Shown here one piece after another: positions 12,542 through 31,808 of a stretch of 64,000 nt of DNA (position 1 is the first letter of the stretch; each line of letters starts with the position of its first letter). A program made the translations under genes and the position numbers. The notes under the pieces are model-generated. The model did not search any database. It was not told the origin of the DNA and was given only the letters and a program-made list of their open reading frames with translations. Source of the DNA: Candidatus Bipolaricaulota bacterium (lineage in GTDB: Bacteria; Bipolaricaulota; Bipolaricaulia; M55B111); assembly GCA_018335015.1 (NCBI GenBank), contig JAGXKX010000002.1, positions 316-64,315 of the forward strand, in the 5' to 3' direction.

Positions 12542-12750
12542 CTGACTTAGTTCTTTTGCCAACGACTTATTTATATCTCTGGGCCGGATAACTCCTCTCT
12601 GCCCCTTACCTGGCTGCCGGGATTACCTCTAATATTAAGCTTAAAAGGTTAAATCAGTTGCCAGCTAAGGGGCAGAGAGCTCCTAGTAAAAAATGAAGCC
12701 AGTGTTTATGAATTAAGTTTAGCTTTGAATACGATGAGGGAAAATTTGAG
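12542..12750 (+). repeat. MITE-like element, copy c (subfamily 2)
   Basis: Left end CTGACTTAGTTCTTTTGCC. The core outer stem 12595-12614 pairs with 12660-12679 (19/20). Right arm carries AATTAAGTTTAGCTTTGAATACGATGAGGGAAAATTTGAG ending at 12750. Confidence 0.85.
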
Positions 12751-12776
12751 TCCGAGGATCCATAGGGTGATATAGG

Positions 12777-13586
12777 TTGAGTTTATATAGAGCAATAAGG
12801 TGGCGAAGGTCGATAAGGGACTACCCGAATAAAGAGCTAACTGAAGTCCAGCTGGACGATCTTGAAAACGACCTCGCTGAGACGAGGAAATTTAACACCG
12901 AGGTCTCGGTGGACGCCCGGCTGGTAAGAGATGGACGGGCTCTACAGGAAGACATATCGGGAATAATTGCCGACTACGGGAAAGTCGAGGCTCCTCACTA
13001 TCTGGTCCTGACTTCGGAGGACACGGAAGATGGTTATATCGAGGTAGGGTACAGGTACGAGTTCGTCGTTCTAGATCTAGCGGCTCAGGGTATCGGTACC
13101 TGCTGGATAGGAAAAGGTTTTCAGGATGAACAATTGAACGAGTACATCGAGCTTCCTTCGGGCCAAACTTGTGTTACTTTAATTGCTCTGGGCCCCTTGT
13201 CGGACGAGGAGGAGCTTTACGAAATCGAGAATCCAAAAAGGAAGGCCCCGGGTCATTTTCTGATAGGACGGAGCCCGAATAGTTTGGCAAAGGAAACTGT
13301 GGAGATAATTGATTGTTTCCGCAGGGCTCCTTCGGCACTGAACGCCCAGCCCTGGCGGGTTATCGGAGAGGAAGGTACAATTCATCTTTACCTCAGGGAG
13401 CGAAATAAAATCACGAAAATAGTTCTCAGAAACCTGAATCAATTGAACCGGGTGGATGCAGGAATAGGGCTCTGTCACCTGGAGGTCGGAGGTAAGTATT
13501 TCCAGGATGGGGTCGAAGTTGGAGAAACCAACCACCCGGAGAAAAAAGGTTTGAGTTACATAGGGAGTCTGATTGGCCGGGATTAG
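12777..13586 (+). CDS. nitroreductase family protein
   Basis: The N-terminal RRSIRDY motif and a second RRAPSALNAQPW motif are typical of the nitroreductase fold. TTG start. Confidence 0.8.
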   Translation: MSLYRAIRWRRSIRDYPNKELTEVQLDDLENDLAETRKFNTEVSVDARLVRDGRALQEDISGIIADYGKVEAPHYLVLTSEDTEDGYIEVGYRYEFVVLDLAAQGIGTCWIGKGFQDEQLNEYIELPSGQTCVTLIALGPLSDEEELYEIENPKRKAPGHFLIGRSPNSLAKETVEIIDCFRRAPSALNAQPWRVIGEEGTIHLYLRERNKITKIVLRNLNQLNRVDAGIGLCHLEVGGKYFQDGVEVGETNHPEKKGLSYIGSLIGRD

Positions 13587-13603
13587 GCCAGGGAGCTGGA
13601 TTG

Positions 13604-13840
13604 TTACCTGTTAATGAGCCAGATTATTAAGTTTATCAGTATCGTTCCTCCCAGGCTAATTAATATCGCGGTTCCCAGGGGGAAGTAAAAATGAAAATTA
13701 CCTCTCTCGAAATGGAAGTCACCGGGTAAGTTACCTATAAAGGGTATATCTTTTCCAAAGAAGAACAGAAGCCCGATTATAATTAGAAAACCTCCGATAA
13801 ACAGCAACAACTTTCCGAACTCTCTGGCCAGCGGAAACAT
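13604..13840 (-). CDS. small membrane protein, DUF2905-like
   Basis: 78-aa ORF with two hydrophobic helices flanking a LPGDFHFERGNFHFYFP motif, which I recall for DUF2905. Confidence 0.7.
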   Translation of the reverse strand: MFPLAREFGKLLLFIGGFLIIIGLLFFFGKDIPFIGNLPGDFHFERGNFHFYFPLGTAILISLGGTILINLIIWLINR

Positions 13841-13953
13841 ATTTCCTCCCGTGATTTTGGATATACCGTTGATAATTGAATTGCTATATAATTTTAGCCA
13901 AAGATCGGTCGGTTCTCAGGAGAAAAATAAACGATTACCGAGAATAAATGTTT

Positions 13954-14156
13954 CTCAGTTCTTTCAGTATTAGATGGAAACGAAAAGTTATTCCCAATGG
14001 CTGACTGCATTTTATTCCCTAACCCTTTGCCCCTTACCTGGCTGCCGGATTTTGTCTACTACTAAGTTTTAGAAGGTTAAATCAGTTGCCAGGTAAGGGG
14101 CAAAGGGTAATTAAACCAGTTAAACAATTAAGTCCTGCGGCGGTGAAGGAACAGAG
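13954..14156 (+). repeat. MITE-like element, copy d
   Basis: Left end CTCAGTTCTTTCAG at 13954. The core outer stem 14023-14042 pairs perfectly (20/20) with 14088-14107. Right end GGTGAAGGAACAGAG ends at 14156. Confidence 0.9.
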
Positions 14157-14235
14157 CGTTTACCCTTCTTTGTTGCATTGAATTTTCTTTTGCTTTATTA
14201 TTCGTCTGCATGATGTGGTAGTTTAATACCGTATT

Positions 14236-14325
14236 GCCGAGGTGGCGGAATTGGCAGACGCGCATGGTTGAGGGCCATGTGGACATTTTTCGTCCGTGCG
14301 GGTTCAAGTCCCGCCCTCGGCACCA
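14236..14325 (+). tRNA. tRNA-Leu (anticodon GAG), type II with long variable arm, CCA encoded
   Basis: Acceptor GCCGAGG/CCTCGGC. Anticodon stem CATGG/CCATG with loop TTGAGGG. Variable arm TGGACATTTTTCGTCCGT. T arm GCGGG-TTCAAGT-CCCGC, then ACCA. Confidence 0.95.
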
Positions 14326-14354
14326 ATCTTTTATGGTGAATTTTTCTTACCAAT

Positions 14355-15374
14355 ATGAAAGTTTTGCTGGATACGATGAGTGGGGACGCACCGCCAGAGG
14401 AAATAATAAAAGGAGCGATTCGGGCATTACGAGAAGCTCAGGGCACGGACCTGGAAGTTACTCTGGTCGGAAGGGAAGAGTTAAATAAGAAAGAGGTAAA
14501 GAGGCTAGAGACACGTGATTTGCTTTCCAGAATTTCCTATCTCAACGCTCCCAATACTATTTCTATGGAGGATACACCTACCAAAGCAGTACGGAGCAAT
14601 CCGGATTCTTCCCTGGTTAAGGGCGTAAAGGCATTAAAGGACGAATCGGAGATCTTTATTTCTTCGGGCAATACCGGGGCCGTGGTGGCTGCCGCTCTGT
14701 TTAATCTGGGGAGAATTCAGGGTGTTTCGAGGCCGGGCCTGGCAGGTGTTACTCCAACCGTAAAGAGCGGAAACGTAGTCTTGATAGATATCGGGGCTAC
14801 AACTGACGCGGACCCGTTAAATCTTGCCCAGTTTGGAGTAATGGGGAGTGCTTTTGCAAAGAACGTTCTCGGCAAGACGGACCCCAAAGTGGCGCTCCTG
14901 AATATCGGTGAGGAACGTACAAAAGGTAACAAATTGACAAAGCAAACGGTCTCTTTAATTGAAAAGACAGACATTAAATATATTGGAAACGTCGAGCCTC
15001 ACCTGTTACTCACTGAGCCGCCGGCCGACGTAGTCGTTTGTGAGGGGTTCGTCGGTAATATTCTCATAAAGGCCTTCGAAGGTGGGGTGGAAGGTACTGT
15101 GGGCTTCTTCAAAGAGGCACTGAAATCTAGCCTCCGGTCCAAGCTCGGGGGGTTGATCCTGCGACCCACGCTGAAGAAGCTAAAAAATCAGCTAAGTTAC
15201 GCTCAATTTGGTGCCGTACCCTTGCTTGGAGTTAGAGGGGTAGTCTTTGTAGCTCATGGCAGGTCGGAAGCCCGGGCGATTAAGAACGCGATCCTGAAAG
15301 CCAGAGAAGCTTCTCGCTGGGACTTGCCGGGAAAAATCGAATCTGAAATGGAGAGGATTGATTTTAGTGAATGA
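14355..15374 (+). CDS. plsX: phosphate acyltransferase PlsX
   Basis: 339-aa ORF. The MKVLLDTMSGD N-terminus and SSGNTGAVVAAA motif are typical of PlsX, and it heads the fab cluster. Confidence 0.95.
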   Translation: MKVLLDTMSGDAPPEEIIKGAIRALREAQGTDLEVTLVGREELNKKEVKRLETRDLLSRISYLNAPNTISMEDTPTKAVRSNPDSSLVKGVKALKDESEIFISSGNTGAVVAAALFNLGRIQGVSRPGLAGVTPTVKSGNVVLIDIGATTDADPLNLAQFGVMGSAFAKNVLGKTDPKVALLNIGEERTKGNKLTKQTVSLIEKTDIKYIGNVEPHLLLTEPPADVVVCEGFVGNILIKAFEGGVEGTVGFFKEALKSSLRSKLGGLILRPTLKKLKNQLSYAQFGAVPLLGVRGVVFVAHGRSEARAIKNAILKAREASRWDLPGKIESEMERIDFSE

Positions 15375-16371
15375 ATCGTGTCACAAAGAAACTCTTCCGA
15401 ATATTCTTTCAATTGGAGCGGCCGTTCCGGACAAGGTCGTGACAAACGAGGATCTGGAAAAGACCCTCGATACGTCCGACGAATGGATTACCAGTCGAAC
15501 CGGGATAAAACATAGACACGTTCTGGAGGAAGAAGAAATCCCATCTTCTCTCGGAGTGGATGCTTCCAGAGAAGCAATCGAGGAATCCCCCGTTGGTCCC
15601 GAGGATATAGATTTAGTGGTCGTGGCTACCAATATCTCTGATATGCCGATACCGGGAACTTCTCCATTCATAGTTAATGAACTTGGTCTTTCTTCGGACG
15701 TCCCGTTCTTCGATCTAAAAGCGGGGTGCAGTGGTTTTTTGTACGCAATTGATGTCGCAGCAAATATGATCAAAGGAAAAGGCTACGAGAGGATACTGAT
15801 AATTGGCCTGGAGGCACTGTCAAGGGTCGTAAACTGGGAAGATAGGAGCACTTGCGTGCTCTTCGGGGACGGGGCGGGGGCATCAGTGATTGGGGCACGG
15901 GGGGAAGGAGGGAGAATTCTATCGACTTCGATGTTTGGAGATCCTTCAAAGGCGAAGCTGATAAGGCTGGAAGGAGGGGGAACGCGTTTACCGCCGGCGG
16001 AGGGAAGTGAGGACGACGAGCGATATTACGTGAGGATGGAAGGAAAGGGAGTTTTCAAAAGCGCGGTAAATATGATGAAGAGGTCGTCTTTAAACGTACT
16101 GGAGGATGCTGGTTTAGCTCTATCCGACGTCGATTGGATCGTGCCTCACCAGGCTAACATCAGAATAATTAAGCAGCTTGCCAAGAGTTTAGGGGTGGAG
16201 ATGGACAGGATCATAGTTAACGTTGAGGAGTACGCCAATACGTCAACGGCTACCATTCCACTTGCATTTAAGGAAGGACTGGATGAAGGATCGATAGAGC
16301 CGGGTGACGTAGTGTTGTTGACAGCTTTTGGCGCTGGAGCGGCTTACGGGGCCACGCTCCTCGAATGGTGA
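15358..16371 (+). CDS. fabH: 3-oxoacyl-ACP synthase III (FabH)
   Basis: Motifs TSDEWITSRTGI, active-site AGCSGF, HQANIRI and GAG near the C-terminus. The start is uncertain: TTG at 15358 is the track start, and GTG at 15367 has better spacing to GGAGAGG. Confidence 0.9.
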   Translation: MILVNESCHKETLPNILSIGAAVPDKVVTNEDLEKTLDTSDEWITSRTGIKHRHVLEEEEIPSSLGVDASREAIEESPVGPEDIDLVVVATNISDMPIPGTSPFIVNELGLSSDVPFFDLKAGCSGFLYAIDVAANMIKGKGYERILIIGLEALSRVVNWEDRSTCVLFGDGAGASVIGARGEGGRILSTSMFGDPSKAKLIRLEGGGTRLPPAEGSEDDERYYVRMEGKGVFKSAVNMMKRSSLNVLEDAGLALSDVDWIVPHQANIRIIKQLAKSLGVEMDRIIVNVEEYANTSTATIPLAFKEGLDEGSIEPGDVVLLTAFGAGAAYGATLLEW

Positions 16372-17261
16372 TTTCTTTGGGTAAGACCGCTTTTATTTTT
16401 CCGGGTCAGGGTTCTCAACACGTCGGGATGGGAACCGAACTTTTTGAAGATTCCAGGGTGAAATACCTTTTCGAGATTGCCACTGAGGTAATGGGTTTCG
16501 ATATCCGGGAATTGATGCTTGAGGGGCCCGAGCAGAAGCTGAACTCGACTGAAAATGCTCAGCCAGCAATATTTACTGACAGTATCGCCCGTTATCAAGT
16601 ATTGGTTGATGAAAGCTGCGATCCCGACTGCGTTCTGGGGCATAGTCTGGGCGAGTTTTCCGCTCTGGTTGCCGCTGGCTGCATCTCTTTCGAGCAGGGT
16701 ATTCGTATCGTGAAGAAGAGGGGGAAGTTGACCGGTAACGTAGACGTTGAAGGATCTATGGTAGCGGTAGTTGGAGTTGATTCCTCGAAGGTAGAGAAAA
16801 TAGTTGACGAGATGGAGGAGCCAGTTACCATTGCAAACCACAACTCTCCCAGGCAGGTAGTAATTTCGGGAAGGGAAGACCAATTGTCCAGGAGCTGCAG
16901 GAAGTTGAAAGAGGAAAGTGCCAAGTGTATTAAGCTTGATGTAACAGGTCCGTTCCACTCCAGGTTTATGAAGGGGGCGGAGAAAGAGTTAAAGAAGTAT
17001 ATAGATAAGTACGATTTTAAGGACCCTAAAGTTCCGGTACTTTCCGGAGTTTCTGGAGAGTTTGAACGTTCGGGTCCGAGGTTGCAAAGACTATTGTCTC
17101 GACAGATGACGCACCCAGTGCGATGGGTCGATTACGTGAAAACTCTGGCGGAGTTCGGAGTCGATACCACGGTTGAAGTAGGTCCCGCCGCTACGCTGAC
17201 CAAGCTGAACCAGAGGATTAACCCCGATCTCGAAGGGAAAAGATTCGACGAGGTGATATGA
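16365..17261 (+). CDS. fabD: malonyl-CoA:ACP transacylase (FabD)
   Basis: FIFPGQGSQ and GHSLGEFSAL motifs. It overlaps the fabH stop by 7 nt. Confidence 0.95.
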   Translation: MVISLGKTAFIFPGQGSQHVGMGTELFEDSRVKYLFEIATEVMGFDIRELMLEGPEQKLNSTENAQPAIFTDSIARYQVLVDESCDPDCVLGHSLGEFSALVAAGCISFEQGIRIVKKRGKLTGNVDVEGSMVAVVGVDSSKVEKIVDEMEEPVTIANHNSPRQVVISGREDQLSRSCRKLKEESAKCIKLDVTGPFHSRFMKGAEKELKKYIDKYDFKDPKVPVLSGVSGEFERSGPRLQRLLSRQMTHPVRWVDYVKTLAEFGVDTTVEVGPAATLTKLNQRINPDLEGKRFDEVI

Positions 17262-17262
17262 G

Positions 17263-17988
17263 TTGGAATACTCCGGAGAAGTCGCAATTGTAACGGGAGG
17301 TGGGAGCGGTATCGGCGAAGGGATTACTCGAGGTCTCGTAGATAACGGACTAAAGACGTACATTTTTTCCAGGTCTCGAGGGGAAGATACTGCCGATGAA
17401 ATTGGCAAAAACTGCCATTTTCTAGAAACCGACGTCACGGACCTCCAATCCGTAGAGAGTTCGGTTCAGGAAACGTTCGATCGGCATGGAAGGCTGGATT
17501 ATCTTGTTAACAATGCAGGGTTCACTAGCGACAATCTATTACTCCGGATGTCTCCAGAGGAGTGGGGTAGAGTAATTGACGTCAATCTGAACGGAGTTTT
17601 CAACTGTACCAGGGCTTCGTTGAGGTATTTGATAAAAGGGGGAGGAAGTATAGTAAATGTTTCTTCGGTTTCTGGACTCCTCGGTAATCCCGGGCAGGCC
17701 AACTACTCAGCTTCGAAGTCGGCAATAGTCGGATTTACTAAAACCCTGGCTCAAGAGTACGGAAAGAGAGAGCTAAGGGCAAACGTGGTTGCTCCTGGAT
17801 TCGTCGATACCAGGTTGACGGAGGATATTCCCGAAGATAAGAGGTCCTCTTACCTGGATAACATTATTTTGAAGAGGTTTGCCGCGCCGGAGGAGATTGC
17901 CCAGCCCACATTATTTTTGTTGAGTGATAAAGCCAGCTATATCACCGGAACTGTACTCAGGGTTGACGGTGGTTTATCGTTTGGCTAG
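17263..17988 (+). CDS. fabG: 3-oxoacyl-ACP reductase (FabG, SDR)
   Basis: TGGGSGIG cofactor motif and YSASK catalytic motif. TTG start 1 nt after the fabD stop. Confidence 0.9.
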   Translation: MEYSGEVAIVTGGGSGIGEGITRGLVDNGLKTYIFSRSRGEDTADEIGKNCHFLETDVTDLQSVESSVQETFDRHGRLDYLVNNAGFTSDNLLLRMSPEEWGRVIDVNLNGVFNCTRASLRYLIKGGGSIVNVSSVSGLLGNPGQANYSASKSAIVGFTKTLAQEYGKRELRANVVAPGFVDTRLTEDIPEDKRSSYLDNIILKRFAAPEEIAQPTLFLLSDKASYITGTVLRVDGGLSFG

Positions 17989-18036
17989 ACTTGTCATCGC
18001 TAAGTTCGAGTTTATCTCATATTAGGAGGTATTTCT

Positions 18037-18279
18037 ATGGAAGATCTAGAATCTCAAGTCAAGGAAATTATTAGCAGGCAACTTATGGTGGATGAAGACG
18101 AGTTGACCCTTGATGCTTCTTACGTCGAAGACCTGGGAGCCGATTCACTAGATACGGTGGAGATGATCATGGAATTTGAGGACGAATTTGGAATTGAGAT
18201 TCCGGATGAAGACGCGGAGGACCTAACCACGGTCGGTGAATCGATAGATTATCTTGAAGACCTTCTTGAGGAGGAGTAA
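18037..18279 (+). CDS. acpP: acyl carrier protein
   Basis: 80-aa highly acidic ORF with the LGADSLD phosphopantetheine attachment motif. RBS AGGAGG. Confidence 0.95.
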
Positions 18280-18312
18280 CTGAATCCTCGATAGACTCTC
18301 GAGGTGGTGTCT

Positions 18313-18795
18313 ATGGCAGAGGAACGACGGGGAGACGTTGGGCACGAGTCAAAGAATCCTTACTACGAAGGCAAGAAGTACAGAGAGCCTACATACTGTC
18401 CGGGCTGCGGCCTTGTCTATCATGAAGGTCGCTGGTTGGACGAAGCAGTGCCGGAAAAACAGGAAGCGAATGAGTCTCTTTGTCCCGCCTGCCGCAGGAA
18501 AAGAGACAGGAATCCGGAAGGTTTAGTGTATCTATCCGGCAACTACTTTGAAGGACACAGGAAAGAAATTCTTCAACTGGCGAAAAATGCGGAGGAGCGG
18601 GCAAAAGAAGATAGACCCCTCCAGCGCATAATGTGGACCGAGAAGGAATCGGATTGTTTAAAGCTTGCGACTACGAACGAACATCTGGCGAGAAGAATAG
18701 GGAAAGCAATTGCCAGGGCCCACAGTGGAGAACTGGACATCAACTCAGGGGATAACGAACGTCTAGTTAGAGTATACTGGAAACGGGAGGAATAA
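18313..18795 (+). CDS. zinc-ribbon protein (CxxC...CxxC), possibly NMD3-related/BCAM0308-like
   Basis: CPGCGLVYHEGRW ... CPACRRKRD motifs. ATG at 18313 has GAGGTG 6 nt upstream, and the track start GTG 18304 lies inside that RBS. The family name is from memory only. Confidence 0.55.
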   Translation: MAEERRGDVGHESKNPYYEGKKYREPTYCPGCGLVYHEGRWLDEAVPEKQEANESLCPACRRKRDRNPEGLVYLSGNYFEGHRKEILQLAKNAEERAKEDRPLQRIMWTEKESDCLKLATTNEHLARRIGKAIARAHSGELDINSGDNERLVRVYWKREE

Positions 18796-18801
18796 CGATA
18801 A

Positions 18802-19446
18802 ATGTCAGTCAAATCTAATATTGATCCGAGAAATCAGAAGCTCGACGCTTTTTTAAACGACCTGGCTTCCAGCAAACCCGCACCCGGCGGAGGTTCGGCC
18901 GCGGCCGTTGCCGGCGCTCTGGGGGCAGCTCTTTCTTCAATGGTGGCAAATTTGACCCTGGGTAAGGAAAAGTATAAAGAGGTAGAAGGAGCCTTCGAGA
19001 CCATCCTGGAGAAGGCAGAAAAACTGAGAAACGAGTTTTTACGGGCAATAGGGGAGGACATAGAGGCGTACAACGAGGTCATGGATGCTTATGGTTTGCC
19101 GAAAAACACGGAAGAAGAAAAGGAACGGAGAAGAGAGGCTATACAGTCAGCTCTGAAAGGCGCCACCGAACCACCGTTCAAGATGGCCGAGCTAGCTGAC
19201 GAGGTTCTGGAGCTGAGCAAAGAATGTGCTCTATCGGGAAACAGTCACGCCGTTACCGACGCGGGAGCCTCTGCCATTCTTGCCGAAGCCACCGTCCGGA
19301 CCGCTTTGCTTAATGTGGATATAAATCTATCGTCGATTTCCGACTCCAGTTTCGTAGAAGAGAAGAGACGGAAAAGGAAAGACCTGAGTCAAAAGGCGCG
19401 GAGGAGAGCGGAGGAAGTCGTCGAAATAATGGACGGGAAAATTTAA
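18802..19446 (+). CDS. cyclodeaminase/cyclohydrolase family protein (FTCD C-terminal-like)
   Basis: APGGGSAAAVAGALGAALSSMVANLT motif, characteristic of the formiminotransferase-cyclodeaminase / methenyl-THF cyclohydrolase helical domain. Confidence 0.8.
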   Translation: MSVKSNIDPRNQKLDAFLNDLASSKPAPGGGSAAAVAGALGAALSSMVANLTLGKEKYKEVEGAFETILEKAEKLRNEFLRAIGEDIEAYNEVMDAYGLPKNTEEEKERRREAIQSALKGATEPPFKMAELADEVLELSKECALSGNSHAVTDAGASAILAEATVRTALLNVDINLSSISDSSFVEEKRRKRKDLSQKARRRAEEVVEIMDGKI

Positions 19447-19463
19447 TGGAGCTTTCCAGGTAG

Positions 19464-20234
19464 ATGGAAGAAGAGATACTGGATCTGGCGAAATCGGCAG
19501 CCGAGGAAGCGGGTGAGCTCCTGGTGGAGGGGCTCGGAAAAAAGAGGATGATATCCAGCAAATCCGGGCCAACCGATCTTGTTACACAGTACGACCGGGA
19601 GTCTCAGGAACTTATTGTAGATAAAATTCAGGATTATTACCCGAATCACTCCATCCTGGCGGAAGAGGAACTCGGGGTAGAGAGAAGTTCGACCAAATGG
19701 ATCATCGATCCTCTGGACGGAACGACCAACTATATCTATAATTATCCTTTGTTTGACGTGTCTATTGGAGTAGAGGTTGAAGGGGAGATCAGGGTCGGAG
19801 TAATTTACGTGCCCCTTCTGGGCGAAACTTACGCGGCTGTAAAGGGTTCGGGTGCAACTCTTAACGGTGAACCGATTTCCGTTTCTACAACTGACGAACT
19901 TTCTTCTTCCCTGCTTTCTACAGGATTCCCCTATGACAAGGATTTGATGCCTAAGGCCAGGGAAACTTTTTCGAACCTCCTGAGGAAATCCAGGGGAATC
20001 AGGCGGGATGGAGCAGCGGGGGTAGATCTTGCTTATCTAGCCTCCGGCAAGTTCGATGGATTTTGGGAACTGGGACTATCCCCGTGGGACGTTGCAGCCG
20101 GTTCCTTAATAATTGAAGAAGCCGGTGGCTACGTGACTGATTTCTCCGGAGGAAACCACGACATTTACGAATCTCAGGGTATCGTAGCAACGAACGGGAA
20201 TTTTCACGAAGAACTGCTGAGTAAACTATCCTGA
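19464..20234 (+). CDS. inositol monophosphatase family protein (SuhB-like)
   Basis: AEEE, WIIDPLDGTTNY and WDVAAG motifs. Confidence 0.85.
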   Translation: MEEEILDLAKSAAEEAGELLVEGLGKKRMISSKSGPTDLVTQYDRESQELIVDKIQDYYPNHSILAEEELGVERSSTKWIIDPLDGTTNYIYNYPLFDVSIGVEVEGEIRVGVIYVPLLGETYAAVKGSGATLNGEPISVSTTDELSSSLLSTGFPYDKDLMPKARETFSNLLRKSRGIRRDGAAGVDLAYLASGKFDGFWELGLSPWDVAAGSLIIEEAGGYVTDFSGGNHDIYESQGIVATNGNFHEELLSKLS

Positions 20235-20375
20235 CTGTTTCCTCGGACCTTTAGTTTGATGAAGGGCCACGGCAACACAGCCTCCGGAAATTTAAACTTG
20301 AGGTTTTGGGTTAGAATCCGAGCGGGTTTTATCCAGGACGTATAACCCAGATCAATTAACGGAAGGTCGGTAAAC

Positions 20376-21671: not shown

Positions 21672-21673
21672 AC

Positions 21674-22057
21674 ATGAGCCTTAAAAGTTTTTTTAGATCT
21701 TTCAAGAACGTATTTTGGTCCGGCTCGATTAACGAAGACCTCCAGCGGAAATCCAGCTCGGCGGAAGACCACGATATATTCTTCCTGGCGAGGGACGTAG
21801 TCGATTACGAAGAGGAGTTAAAGGATTTAAAATCATGGATAAAGGATAAATTTGAAAGCCCAAGGATAAAATTAAACGATCCCGACAATATGGAACCATA
21901 CATCGAGCTGAATCTTGACGTGGAAACCGAGGAAGGAGATTTCCGCCTCGTTTATTACGAAAATTACGAACTGGTACTCAGAGGAGACAGAAAGGTGACG
22001 GAAGATCTTGAACCGGAAATTGGCCGGGAGCTTGACGTGGAATTTGAGCAAGTTTGA
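21674..22057 (+). CDS. hypothetical acidic protein (127 aa)
   Basis: ORF starts 2 nt after the asnS stop. I recognise no motif. Confidence 0.5.
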   Translation: MSLKSFFRSFKNVFWSGSINEDLQRKSSSAEDHDIFFLARDVVDYEEELKDLKSWIKDKFESPRIKLNDPDNMEPYIELNLDVETEEGDFRLVYYENYELVLRGDRKVTEDLEPEIGRELDVEFEQV

Positions 22058-22077
22058 TGCTCGTTCTCCCCTCCTAC

Positions 22078-22322
22078 CTCAGTTCATTTTAGGCTAAAGA
22101 GTAGCAATGTGTTAACATTCAGTCCCTTCGCCATTGTCAGAAGGGGACAGTAATTCATGGCCAATAATTGCGCTTTATCTTGCGGGCCTTCTGTCGCTTA
22201 CCTGGCTGCCGGTTTACCTTTACTGCTAGGTTTTGTTAGATCAGTTGCCAGATAGGCGGCAGAGAGAAATTACCAACACTAATTGAGAATTCTCAGGGCT
22301 TGCTCTGGTGATGAATCTGCTG
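22078..22322 (+). repeat. MITE-like element, copy e (longer, diverged)
   Basis: Left end CTCAGTTCATTTTAGG at 22078. Core at 22189-22267 (TTCTGTCGCTTACCTGGCTGCCGG...TTAGATCAGTTGCCAGATAGGCGGCAGAGA). Right end GGTGATGAATCTGCTG ends near 22322. Confidence 0.75.
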
Positions 22323-22478
22323 GGACTTGGTTTGTAAAAGACCGAAAAGATTACTTAACTACTTAAAAGAGTTTTTCTATAGGCCCTGTTCCTGGGGCGG
22401 GGTTATGGGTTATTGACGTATTGATAGGGAAATATATGGTTAACCGTATTGCATTTCAAAATTTTTTAGGGTGATATT

Positions 22479-24416
22479 ATGAGTGACCTAACTCCGGAGT
22501 CACTGACAGAGTTCAAATTTATCTCCAAACCGGCGCTATCTGAGGACGGAAGTAAAGTGGCCTTTCTGGTAAAAAAATCAAACGAGCAGCGAGACGATTA
22601 TAACTCGAATATATGGATCTACGACTTTGATAGTGATTCTTCTACCAGGCTTACGGCGTCCGACGAGGACGGAAGTTTCGTCTGGCGCGGGTCAGATGAT
22701 ATTCTCTTCACCTCCTCACGGAGGTCAGAGGACGAGGAACTGGAAGGTTCGACAGACTTTTATGCAATATCGGTGACGGGCGGGGAAGCTACGAAAGTTT
22801 TCTCTGTTCCCCATGAGGTGGAATCGTTCCGGTGGCAGAACGAAGAACTTATTTACAAAGCCTCGGTGGAGATTCGGGAGAAGGACGAACAAGAGGAGGG
22901 TCCCAATTGCAAGGTTCTGAATGAAATTCCTTTCTGGGCTAACGGCAAGGGTTTTACCAATAAGAAAAGACCTCATCTGTTCTCCTACTCGGATGAAAAA
23001 GACGATCCCGAGGAGTTGACTCCAGGAGCCATATCCGTCGAGGAATTTGCCATTGATCAGAATAACCTGGCTTTCGTGGGCAAGGAGTACGAAGACAAAG
23101 CCCCAATCACCAGCGAAATATACCTTCTCTCGCTGGGTGAAGGTTCGTCTCCTGAGAAGCTGACAGACGAAGGCTACCAGCTGGATTTACTGGAATTCAA
23201 AGATTCTCATAGTCTTTACGTCACATTAACTGACATGGAAAAAACCGGGCTGAACCAGGACCACAAATTATTCGAGTTCGACCTTGAGGAGAGGGAATTT
23301 TGTCCTCTCAATCCTAACTGGTCCAACTCGTTTTCTAATAGGGTCCTGACTGACGTAAGGCTCGGTTCCGGGCAGAGAAGCGCCACGGACGGGAATAATT
23401 TTTACTTCGTCTCTACGGTTGGACGAAGTTCCCATTTGTCCGTCGCGGATCCAAAAGGAGAAGTATCTAACTTTACCGGGCAGGGAGGGTCCATCGACGA
23501 TTTCGACGTCGCGAATGGGAGAGCAGTCTTTGTAAAACTAACCTCCGGCGAGCTACAGGAGCTCTACTCTCTTACGGACCGGGGTGAAGAAAAGTTACTC
23601 ACGGGGGTAAACGAACAGTCTCTGCGGCCGGAGAATTTTTCCCGTCCGGAAGAATTCACGGTCGAACGGGCTGATGCTTCTATCGACTCCTGGATAATAA
23701 AACCCCGGGATTTCGACCCGGATAAGAGCTATCCCGCAATACTGGAAGTCCACGGCGGGCCTAAAGCAGTTTACGGGGACGTTTACTTTCACGAAATGCA
23801 GCTTTTAGCGAATAACGGGTACGTCGTTATCTTTTCAAATCCAAGGGGAAGTGACGGAAAAGGCGACGAGTTTGCTGATATACGGGGAAGTTACGGTCGG
23901 GAAGATTACGCTGATCTAATGCGGGTAATGGACGTTGCTCTGGACCGTTTCTCTTTCATAGATGAAGACCGACTTGGAGTTACGGGCGGGTCTTACGGGG
24001 GATTCATGACCAACTGGATCATAGGACATACTGACAGGTTTGACGCCGCCGTTTCCTGTAGAAGTATATCGAACTGGATCTCTAAATTTAATACGACCGA
24101 TATTGGTTACTTTTTCGTCTCCGACCAGCAGGACGGTGACCCCTGGAAGGATCACGACAAGCTGTGGAATCAATCGCCGCTGAAATACGCGGATCGAGTC
24201 GATACCCCTACTCTATTTATCCACTCCCGCGAGGACTATCGATGCTGGGAAGGGGAGGGAATGCAAATGTTTACCGCCCTGAAGTACCACGGCGTACCGG
24301 CGCGGTTATGTCTGTTTGAAGGAGAGAACCACGAACTCAGTCGGGGAGGACAACCGAAAAACCGGATCAAGCGTCTCGAGGAAATGGTAAACTGGTTCGA
24401 TAGTTATCTGAAATAA
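22479..24416 (+). CDS. S9 family serine peptidase (prolyl oligopeptidase / acylaminoacyl-peptidase type)
   Basis: 645-aa ORF with an N-terminal beta-propeller-like region and a C-terminal hydrolase domain carrying the GGSYGGFMT nucleophile elbow. Confidence 0.9.
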   Translation: MSDLTPESLTEFKFISKPALSEDGSKVAFLVKKSNEQRDDYNSNIWIYDFDSDSSTRLTASDEDGSFVWRGSDDILFTSSRRSEDEELEGSTDFYAISVTGGEATKVFSVPHEVESFRWQNEELIYKASVEIREKDEQEEGPNCKVLNEIPFWANGKGFTNKKRPHLFSYSDEKDDPEELTPGAISVEEFAIDQNNLAFVGKEYEDKAPITSEIYLLSLGEGSSPEKLTDEGYQLDLLEFKDSHSLYVTLTDMEKTGLNQDHKLFEFDLEEREFCPLNPNWSNSFSNRVLTDVRLGSGQRSATDGNNFYFVSTVGRSSHLSVADPKGEVSNFTGQGGSIDDFDVANGRAVFVKLTSGELQELYSLTDRGEEKLLTGVNEQSLRPENFSRPEEFTVERADASIDSWIIKPRDFDPDKSYPAILEVHGGPKAVYGDVYFHEMQLLANNGYVVIFSNPRGSDGKGDEFADIRGSYGREDYADLMRVMDVALDRFSFIDEDRLGVTGGSYGGFMTNWIIGHTDRFDAAVSCRSISNWISKFNTTDIGYFFVSDQQDGDPWKDHDKLWNQSPLKYADRVDTPTLFIHSREDYRCWEGEGMQMFTALKYHGVPARLCLFEGENHELSRGGQPKNRIKRLEEMVNWFDSYLK

Positions 24417-24422
24417 TTCACG

Positions 24423-24625
24423 CTCAGATCTTCCACCGTCGTATGAAAGCGAAACTTAATTGTGAGTATCGATTTTATTTTTTCACTACTAGCTCTCTAC
24501 CCCTTAGCTGGCAACTGATTTAACCTTTAAAACTCAGCAGGAGTCAAAATCCGGCAGCCAGCTAAGGGGTAGAGAGCATTTATCCGAACCAGATAGCTAA
24601 ATCTGCCGTTGGTGAAAGATCTGAG
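24423..24625 (-). repeat. MITE-like element, copy f (subfamily 2, inverted orientation)
   Basis: Termini CTCAGATCTTCCACCGTCG (24423-24441) and CCGTTGGTGAAAGATCTGAG (24606-24625). The core outer stem 24492-24512 pairs perfectly (21/21) with 24557-24577. It starts 7 nt after the S9 peptidase stop. Confidence 0.9.
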
Positions 24626-24710
24626 TTATGATAATTCGGCAACCACCAATGCGTGTCGAGAGAGCCCTGGAATTGGTTCTGAAAAAATCGGCTTGATTGA
24701 GGGAGTGTTA

Positions 24711-25154
24711 TTAATCTCGGGTCAATTCGCCCTGGATTCCGTCCATTTTCTCGTCCAGGACACGACATGTAATTTCGGCTTTCGCTAGAATTTCATCGTT
24801 TTTGTCGCGTACCTCCGCTTTTGTATTTACGATTCCGTGTCTTCTCTCCGTTATTTTTGCTCTGACCGTAATCTTTTCTTCCAGAGGGACGGGCTGGAGG
24901 AATTTACACTCTAACTCGTAGCTCGGAGAGACCCGACCTGTCTCAGCTATTGCCGCCCACGCTGATGCCTCGTCGAGCAACGTCACGATTATTCCCCCGT
25001 GAGCAGTATTCTTGAATCCCTGGTAGTGATTACTTAGTTCCTTCCTGGCGACGATCCATTCTCCCTCGCGAGTAAAATCGAGTTTCAGCCCTATTGGATT
25101 GTCACCACAACCAAAGCAGCGGTTGTCTTCCCTAGACCAGTCGAAAGTAGCCAT
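24711..25154 (-). CDS. PaaI-family hotdog-fold thioesterase
   Basis: 147-aa ORF with a CFGCG motif followed by HGGIIVTLLDEA, typical of PaaI/YbgC-type thioesterases. Confidence 0.85.
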   Translation of the reverse strand: MATFDWSREDNRCFGCGDNPIGLKLDFTREGEWIVARKELSNHYQGFKNTAHGGIIVTLLDEASAWAAIAETGRVSPSYELECKFLQPVPLEEKITVRAKITERRHGIVNTKAEVRDKNDEILAKAEITCRVLDEKMDGIQGELTRD

Positions 25155-25407
25155 CGAATACCTCCTTTAGTACCTTTAGTGTGTTCCAAGTCTCAGTTTT
25201 TCTCCAATTCGGGCGCTCGAACTCTGCCGGCTGTCGCTATTCAGTTTCGGTTAAAATAAGTATGAATCCCTGACGTTCTGTTGGACGTATCCTGTGACCA
25301 AGCGGGGGGTCCGTCCTGTTCGGTTCACTCTAAATCGTCTCTGAAGCCCCCGCCTTTAAAGTATTAGTTAATTAGGTGAATTTCAGGATTGGAGGAACTC
25401 ATTTGGA

Positions 25408-25608
25408 ATCAGTTCTTCTCACCACTATCCGGAGCGAGTTTTAGGTCATAAGAAAGAATTATATTGTTTAGTTCATGCCTCCTGCCCCTTATCTGGCTGC
25501 CGGATTTTGTCTACTGGTAGGATTTTAAGGTTAAATCAGTTGCCAGATAAAGGGCAGGAGGCAAATGAGCCCAAGTGAACAATGTACGACAATGGTGAAA
25601 GAACTGAT
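25408..25608 (+). repeat. MITE-like element, copy g (subfamily 1)
   Basis: Termini ATCAGTTCTTCTCACCAC and ATGGTGAAAGAACTGAT. The core outer stem 25477-25497 pairs with 25542-25562 (20/21). TATATT box at 25460-25465. Confidence 0.9.
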
Positions 25609-25614
25609 TCCGAG

Positions 25615-25646
25615 ATAAAAAGGGGGCCCGGTAAGATCCGGGCCCC
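25615..25646 (-). terminator. Rho-independent terminator of hppA
   Basis: On the minus strand, GGGGCCCGG-ATCTTA-CCGGGCCCC is followed by CTTTTTAT. It lies 28 nt after the hppA stop. Confidence 0.75.
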
Positions 25647-25673
25647 GCAATGGACTCAAGTTTAAGTGCTTGG

Positions 25674-27884
25674 TTAGAAAATTATCGGGTAAACGGGAAA
25701 CAACGAGGCAAAAAGTATAGAAACGACCGACATCAACTTCGCCAGAATGTCCAGCGAAGGACCGACGGTATCTTTGAGAGGGTCCCCCACCGTGTCACCG
25801 ACTACGCTAGCGTCGTGTGCTTCCGAATTTTTGCCACCGAAGTTACCTTCCTCAATAAATTTCTTTGCGTTATCCAGAGCACCACCAGTGTTGGCACAAT
25901 AAATTGCGAGCTGGAGACAGGATAATAAAGCACCTATTAGGAAACCCGCAAGGGCCAGCCTCCCGAGTACGAGACCGACGATTATAGGCATGAATACCGC
26001 CAGTAAAGACGGTACGACCATCCTGCGGAGTCCACCGGCGGACGTAATTGATATACACTTGTTATAGTCCGGTTTGGTTTCTCCCTTGAGAATTCCGGGC
26101 ATTTCCTCGAACTGACGTCTTACTTCCCGAACCATTGTTCCTGCCGTATCGCTTACCCCCCTTATCAACAGGGAAGAGAATACGTAGGGTATCATGGCGC
26201 CCAGGAATAAGGCAGCCACCACGGATCCACCTATGCCCGGTTCCGATGAAAGTATCTCGATTGTCGGTACCTTCACGGCTTCTGCAGTCCCGATAGCTGA
26301 CCACATGTAAGCCGCGATCAATGCCAGGGCGGAAAACGCCGCGGATCCAATTGCAAAGCCCTTTCCTATTGCCGCTGTTGTATTACCGATTGAGTCCAGT
26401 TTGTCCGTCCTTTCCCTCACGCTTTCGTCCAGTCCGGCTCCTTCGGCAATCCCCCCTGCATTATCCGCTATCGGTCCGTAGGTATCTACGGATACGGTTA
26501 TCGCCACAAATGAGAGCATGCCGAGGGCTCCGTATGCCACACCCATCAACCCTGCGAGCCAGTAAGTTATCATCACAGCCAGCGCTATGGCAAGTGCTGG
26601 AATGAAAGTGCTGAGCATACCGACCGCCATTCCGGAAGTAATTCCTACAGCCGTTCCCGAGTCGTTCATTTCGGCTATTCGCTGGACCGGGTTGTACTCG
26701 GCCGACGTGTAATACTCCGAAATATACCCGATAACTATACCCACCAGTGCTCCGGTTAGGACCGCCCAGAACGGAGCGAAATTCATCGGAGATATCCAGG
26801 TAATGACGAATGCGAATACAGCCGTCAACAGAGCCGCGATCCTAGTTCCATTCATCAGGGTCGTCTGCATACCTTCTTCTCTATTACTCATCCTGATGTA
26901 CTGAACGCCAATTATACTGGAGAATATTCCCGCGGCGACAATTAGCATCGGAGCGAAGATCGACCACCAGTACTGCGACGTACTTAGACCGACACTTAGT
27001 CCGAAGTTTCCCAGCATTCTTTGAAGAGACGGAGCTACCGTGCCTTCGACTCCCTGTCCTACGAATACGTAGAGCATGATAATTATGACGGAAATTATCG
27101 ATCCGATGAACGATTCAAGCAGGTCAGCTCCCAGGCCTCCTACATCACCGACGTTATCACCGACGTTATCGGCTACAGAGGCGGGATTACGAGGGTCGTC
27201 TTCGGGCAATCCCTGTTCTACTTTACCGACCAGGTCGGCTCCCATGTCGGCTGCTTTTGTGTAAATTCCTCCTCCAACACGGTCGAATAGTGCAACGAGA
27301 GATGCCCCCATCGAGTAAGCACTGACGATGAGCGCTCCCTTGATCAGGTTTACGTCCCGTCCGAGTAGCTGGCTTATTACTGGTATAGATTTAGTCTGGA
27401 TCTGTAACGTCGCGGGATTAAAAGATCCTCTGAAAATGGTAATAACCAGTACCAGTCCTCCCAGGGCCAAACCGGCTACTGCCAGGCCCATTACTGCTCC
27501 ACCTGAAATAGCTATGTTAAGCGCTTTCTGGAAGTTGTTCCTTGCCGCGTTAGTCGTTCTCCCGTTGGATAGAGTAGCCGAATTCATTCCTATAAAGGCC
27601 GCCGTCATTGATAGGACGGCGCCAATGATGAACGCGATAGCCACTTCCCAGTAGAAAAGACCCCACAAAAGACCGGCGATCGCTAACATCACCACGGCAA
27701 AGATCCTGACTTCCTCGCTCATGAAGGTCCAGGCACCTTCGCGGATATACCCCTGAAGGTCCTTAATTTCTTCGGTACCCTGATCCTGCTTGGTGACGTA
27801 TCGAACCAGATACCAGGCCAGGACCAGACCCAGAGCAGCAACAATCCCGGGCACCAGACTCAAGTCGTAAGTCGATAGCATCAA
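25674..27884 (-). CDS. hppA: membrane-integral ion-translocating pyrophosphatase (K+-dependent type)
   Basis: 736-aa polytopic ORF with GGIYTKAADMGADLVGK, DNVGDNVGD and GNTTAAIGKGFAIGSAA motifs. Confidence 0.95.
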   Translation of the reverse strand: MMLSTYDLSLVPGIVAALGLVLAWYLVRYVTKQDQGTEEIKDLQGYIREGAWTFMSEEVRIFAVVMLAIAGLLWGLFYWEVAIAFIIGAVLSMTAAFIGMNSATLSNGRTTNAARNNFQKALNIAISGGAVMGLAVAGLALGGLVLVITIFRGSFNPATLQIQTKSIPVISQLLGRDVNLIKGALIVSAYSMGASLVALFDRVGGGIYTKAADMGADLVGKVEQGLPEDDPRNPASVADNVGDNVGDVGGLGADLLESFIGSIISVIIIMLYVFVGQGVEGTVAPSLQRMLGNFGLSVGLSTSQYWWSIFAPMLIVAAGIFSSIIGVQYIRMSNREEGMQTTLMNGTRIAALLTAVFAFVITWISPMNFAPFWAVLTGALVGIVIGYISEYYTSAEYNPVQRIAEMNDSGTAVGITSGMAVGMLSTFIPALAIALAVMITYWLAGLMGVAYGALGMLSFVAITVSVDTYGPIADNAGGIAEGAGLDESVRERTDKLDSIGNTTAAIGKGFAIGSAAFSALALIAAYMWSAIGTAEAVKVPTIEILSSEPGIGGSVVAALFLGAMIPYVFSSLLIRGVSDTAGTMVREVRRQFEEMPGILKGETKPDYNKCISITSAGGLRRMVVPSLLAVFMPIIVGLVLGRLALAGFLIGALLSCLQLAIYCANTGGALDNAKKFIEEGNFGGKNSEAHDASVVGDTVGDPLKDTVGPSLDILAKLMSVVSILFASLFPVYPIIF

Positions 27885-27980
27885 TAAATCTCCTCCGTTT
27901 TAATTAAATTGATTTTGTGCTTGAAAATTTTACCGGTAAATTTTTTTGTGCTGGTTGTTTATTTCGTTGCTTTGGTTCCT

Positions 27981-29417
27981 TCACTCCAAACTTTCCAGCG
28001 CCGTATTTAACCTGTCACAGGTAACTTCCGGACCCAAAATGCTCAGGACCTCCTTGATTTCCGGTCCGGAAATCTTTCCGGTAACCGCTGCACGTAGCGG
28101 TTTGTATACTTCTTTGTATTCAACTTCCAGGTCCTCTTTGACCTCTTTTACAATCGTCGAAACTTCGTCCGAGGAAAGAAATTCCCTGGTAGAAAATTTC
28201 TCTTCGAGTGCTTCCAGCACGGCGGTTGAACCATCCCAGTTTAAAACCTCTTTTGCCTCCGAATTCAATTCCAGCGACCCGTAGAATATTTCTAGGTCCT
28301 CGTGGTCCTTAAGATCGGTCAACTTCTCGAGAGAGGGCCTTATTAGGTCAAGAACTTTCTTCAGCTTTTCACGCCCGTCTTCTTCGGGTTCTTCCTCGAT
28401 GTAACCTCTCTCCTTCAAAAGCGGCACCGATAGACCGACCAGACGGTCCAGTTCCGCCCTTTTTATGTACTGGTTGTTAAACCAGTCCAGCTTTTCCCTG
28501 TCGAAGACCTGAGGGCTATCGATTATGTTGTCCAGAGAGAACTTTTCTGTAAGTTCGGACACTGAAAATATTTCCTGGTTGTCCTTGGAGGACCAACCAA
28601 GCTGGGCCAGGTGATTTACGAGTGCCTCCGGAAGGTATCCATTTTTTTTGAACTCTTTTACCGAAGTGGCGCCGCTGCGCTTGCTCAATTTGGACTTATC
28701 GGGACCGAGAAGCATCGAGAGGTGACCGAATTGAGGCTGGTTGAAGTCAAGTGCGTCGTAAAGCAGTATCTGTTTGGCAGTGTTCGTTAAATGGTCTTCT
28801 GCCCTCATCGTGAAGCTTATTTCCATCAGGTGATCGTCCAGGACGCAGGCGAAGTTGTAACTCGGAGTGCCGTCCGACTTGAGGATGACGAAATCACCGG
28901 TGGTCAGGCTTTCGAATTCGACGTCTCCTTTTATTCTGTCCGGAACGACAACGCTGGGTTGCTGTTCGGGTAGCTTGAACCGTATAACGGAGTCGCGCCC
29001 TTCTTCTCGATATTCTTGCTTCTCTTCCTCCGACAGGTTCCGGCACCTTCCGTCGTAAGTCGGTGTGCGACCTTCGTCCAGAGCTTTTTGCCGTCTCTCT
29101 TCAAGTTCTTCCTCAGTACAGAAGCAGTGATAGGCCTTTTCTTCATGAACCAATCTGCGGGCGTATCGCTCGTATATTTCCAGCCTGTCGGATTGTTTGT
29201 AAAACTCGTCCCAGACTATTCCCAGCCACTTTAGGTCTTCTTTAATGCCTTCCGTGTACTTTTCCTGCGACCTATCCAGGTCGGTATCCTCTATTCGAAG
29301 AATTAGCTTGCCGTCGTGTTTCTTGGCGTATAACCAATTAAAAAGCGCTGTCCTTGCCCCTCCGACGTGGAGCCAACCGGTCGGCGAAGGAGCAAACCGA
29401 ACTCTTTCTGTCTTCAC
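27981..29417 (-). CDS. gltX: glutamate--tRNA ligase
   Basis: RFAPSPTGWLHVGGARTA (HIGH region) and KLSKR (KMSKS region). GTG start. Confidence 0.95.
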   Translation of the reverse strand: MKTERVRFAPSPTGWLHVGGARTALFNWLYAKKHDGKLILRIEDTDLDRSQEKYTEGIKEDLKWLGIVWDEFYKQSDRLEIYERYARRLVHEEKAYHCFCTEEELEERRQKALDEGRTPTYDGRCRNLSEEEKQEYREEGRDSVIRFKLPEQQPSVVVPDRIKGDVEFESLTTGDFVILKSDGTPSYNFACVLDDHLMEISFTMRAEDHLTNTAKQILLYDALDFNQPQFGHLSMLLGPDKSKLSKRSGATSVKEFKKNGYLPEALVNHLAQLGWSSKDNQEIFSVSELTEKFSLDNIIDSPQVFDREKLDWFNNQYIKRAELDRLVGLSVPLLKERGYIEEEPEEDGREKLKKVLDLIRPSLEKLTDLKDHEDLEIFYGSLELNSEAKEVLNWDGSTAVLEALEEKFSTREFLSSDEVSTIVKEVKEDLEVEYKEVYKPLRAAVTGKISGPEIKEVLSILGPEVTCDRLNTALESLE

Positions 29418-29468
29418 AAATATTTCCCTCCAACTATTTTTCGAGACATCTATAAAACTATCTTACAT

Positions 29469-29496
29469 ATTATAGAGACGAAGCGGTAAAGTGCAA
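29469..29496 (-). promoter_or_regulatory. putative sigma70-type promoter of gltX
   Basis: On the minus strand, TTGCAC (29491-29496), a 16-nt spacer and TATAAT (29469-29474), about 50 nt upstream of the start codon. Confidence 0.4.
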
Positions 29497-29588
29497 ATTA
29501 AAACTCAAATATATTCATCATATCTGTACCTCGTTATCCAGTCCTCACCTGCCCTCTTCCCCTCGACCGGTAACTAATTTAACTTTAG

Positions 29589-29754
29589 CTCGGTCTCTTC
29601 ACCAAAGACCGATTTATCTGGCCCTACTTCTAGTTCTCCCCCCTTAGATAGCTGCCGGATTTCGTAGACTGGCGATTTTTAAAGGTTAAATCAGTTGCCA
29701 GCTAAGGGGGGAGAACTAGAAGTAAAGAAATGAACTGTTAGAAAGACCTTAGAG
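29589..29754 (+). repeat. MITE-like element, copy h (short right arm)
   Basis: Left end CTCGGTCTCTTCACCAAAG. The copy-specific outer stem CTTCTAGTTCTCCCCCC (29627-29643) pairs perfectly (17/17) with 29706-29722. The conserved loop is GCTGCCGGATTTCG...GGTTAAATCAGTTGCCAG. Confidence 0.85.
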
Positions 29755-31759: not shown

Positions 31760-31808
31760 CTCGATAAATTTTAATCAATTGAAGTTGGTTTGTCAGCGGG
31801 AGAAAAGA

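Follow-up and report, generated by a model that had tools for sequence, protein, structure and literature searches.

The window analysed here, a stretch of 64,000 nucleotides from contig JAGXKX010000002.1 of the Candidatus Bipolaricaulota assembly GCA_018335015.1, contains repeated copies of a hairpin whose outer stem differs from copy to copy and yet stays complementary within each copy. The question raised by this arrangement is what keeps the two arms of the stem matched. A sequence-only reading of part of the window had proposed that the arms are held complementary either by selection for a hairpin in RNA or single-stranded DNA, or by a mechanism that regenerates the palindrome. The hairpin is the centre of a ~200-bp MITE (miniature inverted-repeat transposable element) which resides in the intergenic DNA of several Candidatus Bipolaricaulota species, and the element has a covarying stem and a loop that inverts. 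DNA-level copying from one arm to the other, rather than selection, is probably the main cause of the complementarity of the stem. Positions given below are those of the whole stretch, and L-numbers (L038, L053 and so on) are labels of the loci with which the window was compared.

Organization and distribution of the element

A full copy begins with a 5-bp target duplication followed by a terminal inverted repeat (TIR), CTCAGTTCTTTCACC, a short arm X (~46 nt including the TIR), and one side of the stem, which consists of a variable outer stem of 11-12 bp and a conserved inner stem, CTTACCTGGC. The asymmetric spacer that forms the loop is 44-48 nt in length and has conserved ends (TGCCGGGATTT ... 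AAGGTTAAATCAGTT) and a variable middle. The spacer is followed by the other side of the inner stem, the outer stem, a long arm Y (~69 nt including the TIR), and the second TIR. Full copies measure 200-206 bp between TIR ends and contain no open reading frame of 80 or more codons. TIR pairs span the hairpin in 16 copies, and CTCAGTTCTTTCACC is found at both termini of 16 hairpin-carrying copies with three or fewer mismatches.

The window holds 11 copies, at ~6.1, 8.0, 12.6, 14.0, 22.2, 24.5, 25.5, 29.6, 31.9, 45.9 and 50.2 kb, all of which are intergenic. Copies are assigned to class I if the short arm is at the left and to class II if the long arm is at the left.

Copy a, 6037..6227, plus strand: decayed hairpin at 6095-6180 with eight stem mismatches; class II.
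Copy b, 8025..8160, plus strand: hairpin at 8025-8110 that begins directly 3' of the stop codon of a VIT-family gene; left arm lost, right arm with a degenerate TIR kept, stem decayed.
Copy c, 12546..12750, plus strand: hairpin at 12594-12680, paired at 19 of 20 positions with one C.C mismatch; class I.
Copy d, 13954..14156, plus strand: hairpin at 14022-14108 with a perfect 21-bp stem; class II.
Copy e, 22118..22330 (ends approximate), plus strand: hairpin at 22186-22267 with six mismatches and a 5-nt deletion in the loop.
Copy f, 24423..24625, minus strand: hairpin at 24492-24577 with a perfect 21-bp stem; class I.
Copy g, 25408..25608, plus strand: hairpin at 25477-25562, paired at 20 of 21 positions with one C.A mismatch; class II; the insertion immediately follows the H+-PPase terminator (25623-25646, minus strand).
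Copy h, 29589..29752, plus strand: hairpin at 29627-29722 with a unique 17-bp outer stem; TIRs degenerate.
Copy i, 31800..32052, minus strand: decayed hairpin at 31854-31939 with eight mismatches; one recognisable TIR ending at 32052, the other end approximate.
Copy j, 45804..46003, plus strand: hairpin at 45872-45957; class II; perfect 5-bp target duplication AATGA.
Copy k, 50174..50374, plus strand: hairpin at 50221-50305; class I.

Allowing one mismatch, the window has 10 occurrences each of CTGGCTGCCGG and ATCAGTTGCCAG, where chance would give 0.6 and 0.2, respectively, and matching the two motifs to each other yields the 11 copies. As single-stranded DNA the hairpins fold with energies of -21 to -29 kcal/mol, which corresponds to z-scores of -5 to -8.6 against shuffled sequences. 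The sequence-only reading had placed the family between 12595 and 29722, a range which proved too narrow, and the positions and complementarity that it quoted for copies c, d, f, g and h were reproduced with two refinements. The 20 of 20 pairs given for copy d (14023-14042 with 14088-14107) become 21 when the pair 14022/14108 is counted, and the 17 of 17 given for copy h apply to its outer stem (29627-29643 with 29706-29722), as the inner stem of this copy has two mismatches.

The family extends well outside the window. A scan of a collection of species-representative genomes with a 20-base core pattern matched five Candidatus Bipolaricaulota assemblies at 31 loci; one of the five is labelled 'Thermotogae'. 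About half of the DNA matches in the collection fell by chance in GC-rich genomes of unrelated organisms and were discarded. With a covariance model made from the copies in the window, the total comes to 46 copies, 35 of them in five other Bipolaricaulota genomes. The family is present in at least six species. The window itself is nearly identical to one contig of GCA_036626135.1.

Both its boundaries and its empty sites identify the element as a MITE. Perfect 5-bp direct repeats surround 4 of 18 TIR pairs (AATGA, TGGAA, ATATT and TTGGG), where about 0.02 would be expected by chance according to our arithmetic (18 x 4^-5); two further pairs are surrounded by 4-bp repeats, and several match at four of five positions. 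Orthologous sites lacking the element were found for copies d (L053), f and g (L080/L081), j (L166) and k (L166 and L169) in relatives with conserved gene order. Two other elements have these TIRs. One is an element of ~270 bp (L062, 418-687) that has a different interior with its own GC hairpin, AGCCGGGGGTTTCTACCCCCGGT, and the other is a 102-bp deletion derivative (L054, 358-459) that retains half of the core hairpin. Together these indicate that one transposase moves several non-autonomous families. In the compared loci, TIR pairs separated by 0.33-4 kb enclose only housekeeping genes and revealed no autonomous partner. The neighbouring genes are likewise ordinary housekeeping genes, and no transposase, RAYT protein or hairpin-binding partner was identified there.

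Covariation of the stem

Covariation was assessed over 44 distinct copies from six genomes with a stem of 21-23 bp. Paired bases occupy 91.4% of stem cells, and 13 of the 23 stem pairs change on both sides, some positions having four or five pair types. Doubly changed cells number 109-130, as opposed to 31-40 +/- 4.5 when columns are shuffled (none of 500 shuffles reached the observed value), and their number drops to 15-34 when the partner column is slid by one to three positions. The covariation originally noticed in the outer stem is thus borne out by the wider sample. The inner stem, which had been described as nearly invariant, is indeed 88-91% identical between copies, yet it also covaries at one position (columns 31/90: CG 29, GC 3, UA 3). 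An additional 5-bp helix, GATTT/AAATC, is 91% paired and has one covarying position (UA 33, CG 7), and it is plausible that this helix is real. A further mini-hairpin within the spacer was rejected since only 53-59% of cells pair in the two registers that were tried.

The stems are diverse as well as paired. Among 45 copies the left outer stem takes 39 different forms and the full stem 43, and 19 copies have one or no mismatch in 21 bp. Copies whose loops are 98-100% identical differ at four to seven stem pairs, nearly all of which are compensated; L032 and L052, for example, are separated by six compensated changes and no single ones. Mean pairwise identity is 52% for the outer stem and 55-58% for the arms outside the hairpin, while it reaches 85% and 92% for the 5' and 3' ends of the loop and 56% for the middle of the loop. 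Despite this divergence, the outer stem is ~87% paired by our sum of the per-pair counts. The outer stem thus diverges about as quickly as unconstrained sequence and yet remains paired, which fits conversion between the arms better than slow compensation driven by selection.

Inversion of the loop

Because the arms of the MITE are unequal (~46 and ~69 nt), the orientation of the loop relative to the rest of the element can be read. Clustering of the left and right flanks in 'same' and 'swapped' orientation splits the copies into two classes. When the X and Y arms of 21 full copies are aligned, 6 have the arrangement X-loop(+)-Y and 15 have X-loop(-)-Y, and both orientations occur within at least three arm subfamilies. 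Copy f and L038 illustrate the difference: aligned plus strand to plus strand, they have arms that are ~93% identical and the same stem, and L038 carries a different loop, its 44-nt spacer being reverse-complemented relative to that of copy f. Two copies of another arm type in L060 likewise have their arms in direct orientation and their loops in opposite orientations.

Inversion has also taken place at fixed positions. At three orthologous loci, those of copies g, k and d, the loop is inverted relative to the window in a sister lineage whose neighbouring proteins are 83-88% identical, while the arms, junctions and flanking genes have not moved. At the g locus (L084/L085) the element occupies the same junction after the PPase terminator and the covariance model matches on the opposite strand. 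At the k locus (L168) the loop is inverted and is of another loop type, and at the d locus (L170) the loop is inverted. The near-identical strain L077 has the window orientation at f and g, and the orthologue of copy b in L171/L172 is not flipped. The f orthologue in L085 was not counted as an in-place flip because the whole element is reversed at a different position, and the c orthologue in L170 is uninformative as only its Y arm is left. A metagenome scan with the thioesterase encoded between copies f and g gave few close relatives, and L086 and L087 contain no copies.

Loop orientation is not biased with respect to the replication strand, given that it agrees in sign with the local GC skew in 24 of the 46 copies. 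With regard to a recombinase-driven invertible switch (inverton), no recombinase is among the Pfam-annotated neighbours and the spacer has no conserved promoter.

Some short-read contigs from several public runs have an end within a loop, namely L078 (window 24548-25523, with ends inside the loops of both f and g, which makes these loops unreadable), L168 at its start, and L170 and L085 at their ends. These contig ends are likely repeat-induced breaks in the assembly graph, although a population with both loop orientations would break contigs in the same way.

Double substitutions in place and possible exchange of loops

The orthologues of copy g provide a view of stem evolution at a single locus. 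Between the window and L084/L085, stem pairs 7, 16 and 18 have changed from T:A to C:G on both arms, and one-sided changes are present only at pairs 1 and 12. The chance that three of four changed positions would coincide with the complementary base is ~4e-4 by our own calculation. After flipping, the loops of the two orthologues are identical at 41 of 44 positions and the arms are 66-75% identical.

It could be argued that the compensation is only apparent, in that the stems derive from a few clonal master copies or that the core was inserted into palindromic targets which already existed, such as terminators. Some stems are indeed held in common through recent origin (L018, L031 and L054; copy j and L049), and the distances between copies measured over arms, stem and loop are moderately and positively correlated (rho 0.27-0.44). 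The sequence-only reading had itself named clonally copied masters as the outcome that would overturn its interpretation. The number of distinct left outer stems and the three double substitutions in place at locus g exclude such a small set of masters. As to palindromic targets, the copies have homologous arms X and Y and homologous TIRs, with the target duplications situated beyond the TIRs, so the stems belong to the element rather than to the target; in addition, the stems are without the T-run that follows those of terminators. An absence of real compensation is accordingly highly improbable.

Parts of the element can have different histories. L038 is a chimera that combines arms and stem similar to those of copy f (distances of 0.10 and 0.00) with a loop similar to that of copy g (distance of 0.04). 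Since the inner stems are nearly identical and palindromic, they would permit one copy to acquire the loop of another in either orientation.

Arm-to-arm copying in DNA versus selection on RNA

Template switching between the arms of an inverted repeat is described as homogenising the arms and inverting the spacer (PMC8604942), and template switching can yield both compensatory changes and loop inversions in hairpins (PMC8794818). As both signatures, homogenisation of the arms and inversion of the spacer, are present in the element, we infer that template switching or arm-to-arm conversion, rather than selection, is probably the main cause of the complementarity of its arms, and DNA-level copying is favoured for this reason. 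The two inverted-repeat arms would exchange sequence at the DNA level, either through replication template switching on an extruded hairpin or because the arms recombine intramolecularly. When one arm mutates, the change would then be erased or copied to the other arm, in which case it would look like a compensatory double substitution. The same events would invert the spacer, and the palindromic inner stems would let loops swap between copies in either orientation. Of the two options in the sequence-only reading, it is thus the palindrome-regenerating one that gains from loop inversion, which is seen in about a third of copies and at the three orthologous loci.

The other option with a direct bearing on the stem is selection for an RNA hairpin. 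The element would be co-transcribed with its neighbours, the stem would stabilise the transcript, provide an RNase III site or work as an attenuator, roles that have been proposed for bcr1, ERIC and Correia elements, and copies with unpaired stems would be deleterious. The copies do lie in untranslated intergenic DNA beside genes, where they often follow closely on a stop codon or terminator or shortly precede a start codon, and the strong covariation, including that of one pair in the GATTT/AAATC helix, is what such selection would produce; RNA-level compensatory changes have been reported for the comparable bcr1 repeat (PMC3184786). The arrangement of flanking genes, however, takes all four forms (convergent 14, co-oriented 12, anti-oriented 7, divergent 7). 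Moreover, a single locus with the same neighbours has the loop in both orientations in sister lineages, so that a given transcript would carry either the loop or its complement. The divergence of the outer stem, about as rapid as that of the unconstrained arms, also speaks against selection on RNA.

The spectrum of mismatches bears on the same question. Counted on the loop(+) strand, stem mismatches comprise 37 C.A/A.C, 21 G.T/T.G and 48 of the transversion type, some of which were inherited by several copies. The excess of C.A over G.T corresponds to more G-U pairs on the other strand and would favour an RNA read from that strand, but the nominal p of ~0.05 for 37 versus 21 is obtained before allowing for shared ancestry, and there is no clear wobble or strand bias. 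Transversion-type mismatches are as common as those of the transition type, and both directions of wobble occur. A selected RNA helix would instead be rich in G-U and poor in A-C oppositions. The C-opposite-A mismatches pointed out earlier in copies j, g and k are present; their suggested explanation as G-U pairs in a minus-strand transcript was not upheld, given that the counts are partly inherited, that transversion-type mismatches are numerous, and that the orientation of the loop is not tied to neighbouring genes.

Comparison with known RNA families adds nothing in favour of a transcript. With Rfam 15 only a tRNA-Leu was matched in the window, and relaxed filters gave only sub-threshold hairpins resembling microRNA precursors on both strands. 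Functions as a terminator or a promoter were considered and rejected, the former because no T-run follows the stem, and the latter because there is no conserved -35/-10 pair and a promoter and terminator scan around copies f and g stayed at background. Selection for an RNA hairpin is consequently an unlikely main cause of the pairing.

Several observations weigh against copying between arms. Copy g and its orthologue are the sole orthologous pair in which both arms are readable, as the contigs with the k and d orthologues end inside the loop. The inversion breakpoints fall in a perfect palindrome and cannot be mapped, which leaves the molecular event to be deduced. Old truncated copies are not kept paired: copies a, b, e and i have six to eight stem mismatches, and the outer stems of the b orthologues in two other species (L171/L172) are unpaired. 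The expectation in the sequence-only reading that ordinary decaying MITE copies would lose their pairing is correct for these four copies, although it was meant to set the hairpin apart from MITEs and the element is one. An A.C mismatch at columns 23/98 is common to four copies of one genome, indicating that correction is not fast relative to transposition. The asymmetry of 37 C.A/A.C to 21 G.T/T.G, weak as it is, is not predicted by a purely symmetric process, and the compared loci yielded no autonomous partner. Finally, the asymmetric internal loop, TGCCGG opposite AGTT, together with the flanking AAGGTTAAATCAGTT, is ~90% conserved across at least six species, whereas conversion alone should gradually make this loop palindromic. 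Conservation of the asymmetry suggests that some sequence-specific selection acts on the element in addition to arm-to-arm copying.

The conserved asymmetric core

The inner stem and the ends of the loop appear by eye to be conserved to an extent comparable to the TIRs. Among the most conserved features of the family is one at the top of the inner stem, where T stands opposite T and a G.T pair comes next; it is invariant in 42-43 of the 44 copies (columns 37-39 with 82-84 of alignment A3). This feature reads as an A.C mismatch on the other strand and flips together with the loop.

Such conservation raises the alternative that whole elements are selected for a DNA hairpin or cruciform. Only elements with an extrudable centre, in which the conserved inner stem and loop ends would be recognised by a protein, would then transpose, and the diversity of stems would reflect many long-lived masters. 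The far greater conservation of the inner stem (88-91%) and loop ends (85-92%) relative to the arms is consistent with this alternative, as are the persistence of the family in at least six species, the loss of pairing in decayed copies, the AT-rich centre of the spacer and the high stability of the hairpins as single-stranded DNA. By itself, however, it does not explain three compensated changes and a flip at the fixed g locus unless g is itself a master. Furthermore, the second element with the same TIRs is without the core, which is therefore no strict requirement of the TIRs, and the compared loci yielded no transposase or hairpin-binding partner. Selection for a DNA hairpin is therefore improbable as the principal explanation, and arm-to-arm copying is preferred for the stem as a whole.

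A role for the core alongside arm-to-arm copying can be envisaged. One guess, prompted by the pattern of conservation, is that the core may be a putative cis site for propagation of the element, with a protein-bound or cruciform-forming centre that would help a short, stiff element to synapse its ends; the absence of the core from the sister element in L062 weighs against this role. It is conceivable, though quite doubtful, that the ~65-nt core (inner stem, asymmetric internal loop, and the ends TGCCGGGATTT and AAGGTTAAATCAGTT) is a functional module, either a hairpin or cruciform for a dedicated putative protein, analogous to REP sequences with RAYT or to hairpin origins, or a flip-flop switch. 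If the core were a functional module, flipping would be part of the biology of the element rather than a by-product of replication error, and if it were a switch, its orientation would alter what the neighbouring genes see.

Comparison with known elements

One of the closest parallels to the Bipolaricaulota element is bcr1, a MITE-like repeat of ~155 bp in the Bacillus cereus group. Like the element described here, bcr1 is small, non-coding, dispersed and intergenic, is bounded by 5-bp direct repeats, varies in its presence between strains, and has compensatory changes that preserve its predicted structure (PMC3184786). It differs in being transcribed into a cruciform-like RNA, in having two stem-loops and in inserting at a specific target (PMC3184786). 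The Bipolaricaulota element, compared with bcr1 by description only, has a single long hairpin at its centre, whose asymmetric spacer is conserved, lacks a target consensus, and shows inversion of the loop.

Correia elements, which are MITEs of Neisseria, are similar in size (~100-150 to 200 bp), TIRs, intergenic location, long hairpins and the presence of an internal functional site, which is an IHF site in Correia. They are reported to invert in place (PMC10969869; PMC3184786). In that case it is reportedly the whole element between the TIRs that inverts, whereas here the spacer of an internal palindrome flips and the arms and TIRs stay in place. TIR sequence, target duplication and host phylum differ as well. 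Template switching at quasipalindromes is described with the same two outcomes, arm homogenisation and spacer inversion (PMC8604942; PMC8794818), although the inverted loops in rRNA hairpins are mostly 4 nt and reach 7-8 nt (PMC8794818). In the Bipolaricaulota element, by comparison, a spacer of 44-48 nt flips repeatedly within a multi-copy mobile element, and loops apparently move between copies.

REP sequences and REPINs are also abundant intergenic hairpin palindromes that keep their pairing and are enriched between convergent genes. REPINs lack TIRs and target duplications and depend on a RAYT gene flanked by REPs, while the present element has TIRs and 5-bp duplications. The f-g pair is the sole case of a gene flanked by two inverted copies, and identity as a RAYT/REPIN system was rejected since the 147-aa reading frame between them encodes a 4HBT thioesterase. 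In non-coding DNA of chloroplasts, minute inversions flip the loop between short inverted repeats recurrently among close relatives and leave the stem unchanged. Those are single-copy organelle hairpins as opposed to a mobile multi-copy family with a conserved core. A context like that of cyanobacterial HIP1 was dismissed, as the window has only two GCGATCGC sites, the number expected by chance.

Covariation and inversion each have precedent. Their combination in one family appears to be undescribed in the literature searched, as do repeated flips of a 44-48-nt internal-palindrome spacer at orthologous loci, the conserved asymmetric core, and Bipolaricaulota as a host phylum. The element thus documents a high-density MITE family in an uncultivated phylum. 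Covariation is normally taken as proof of a selected RNA structure, and in this family copying at the DNA level probably explains it better; pipelines for the discovery of RNA motifs would score the element highly and are warned by this example. The family also offers a natural multi-copy system in which to measure how often template switching makes 'compensatory' changes.

Neighbouring DNA

A second, different TIR-bearing element abuts copy g at approximately 25178-25407, between g and the start of the thioesterase gene, and its outer end is CTCAGTTTTTCTCC (~25190, plus strand). L079 has the second element without g, L084 has g with only the end of the second element, and L080/L081 have neither. 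This varied occupancy indicates that the site after the PPase terminator has been invaded repeatedly. The sole single-nucleotide difference between the window and L078 (25196) falls in the TIR of the second element.

Copies b and c bracket a 4.4-kb block (8163-12413) of four minus-strand genes, which encode a xylose-isomerase-like TIM barrel protein, a GFO/IDH/MocA oxidoreductase and two proteins of unknown type. L053 and L171/L172 instead have the VIT gene next to the nitroreductase gene. The block marks a rearrangement or an insertion, with a copy of the element on either side. At copy b, the left stem comes immediately after the stop codon of the VIT-family gene, in the window (8025-8030) as well as in two other species (L171, 2780-2790). 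As the end of the gene abuts copy b in three species and the long arm is missing, the fusion predates the split of these species. L053 has a collapsed remnant at the position of copy b. A tRNA-Leu(GAG) gene (14236-14322) lies ~80 bp downstream of copy d, and its promoter-proximal sequence is conserved with L053, where the d element is absent.

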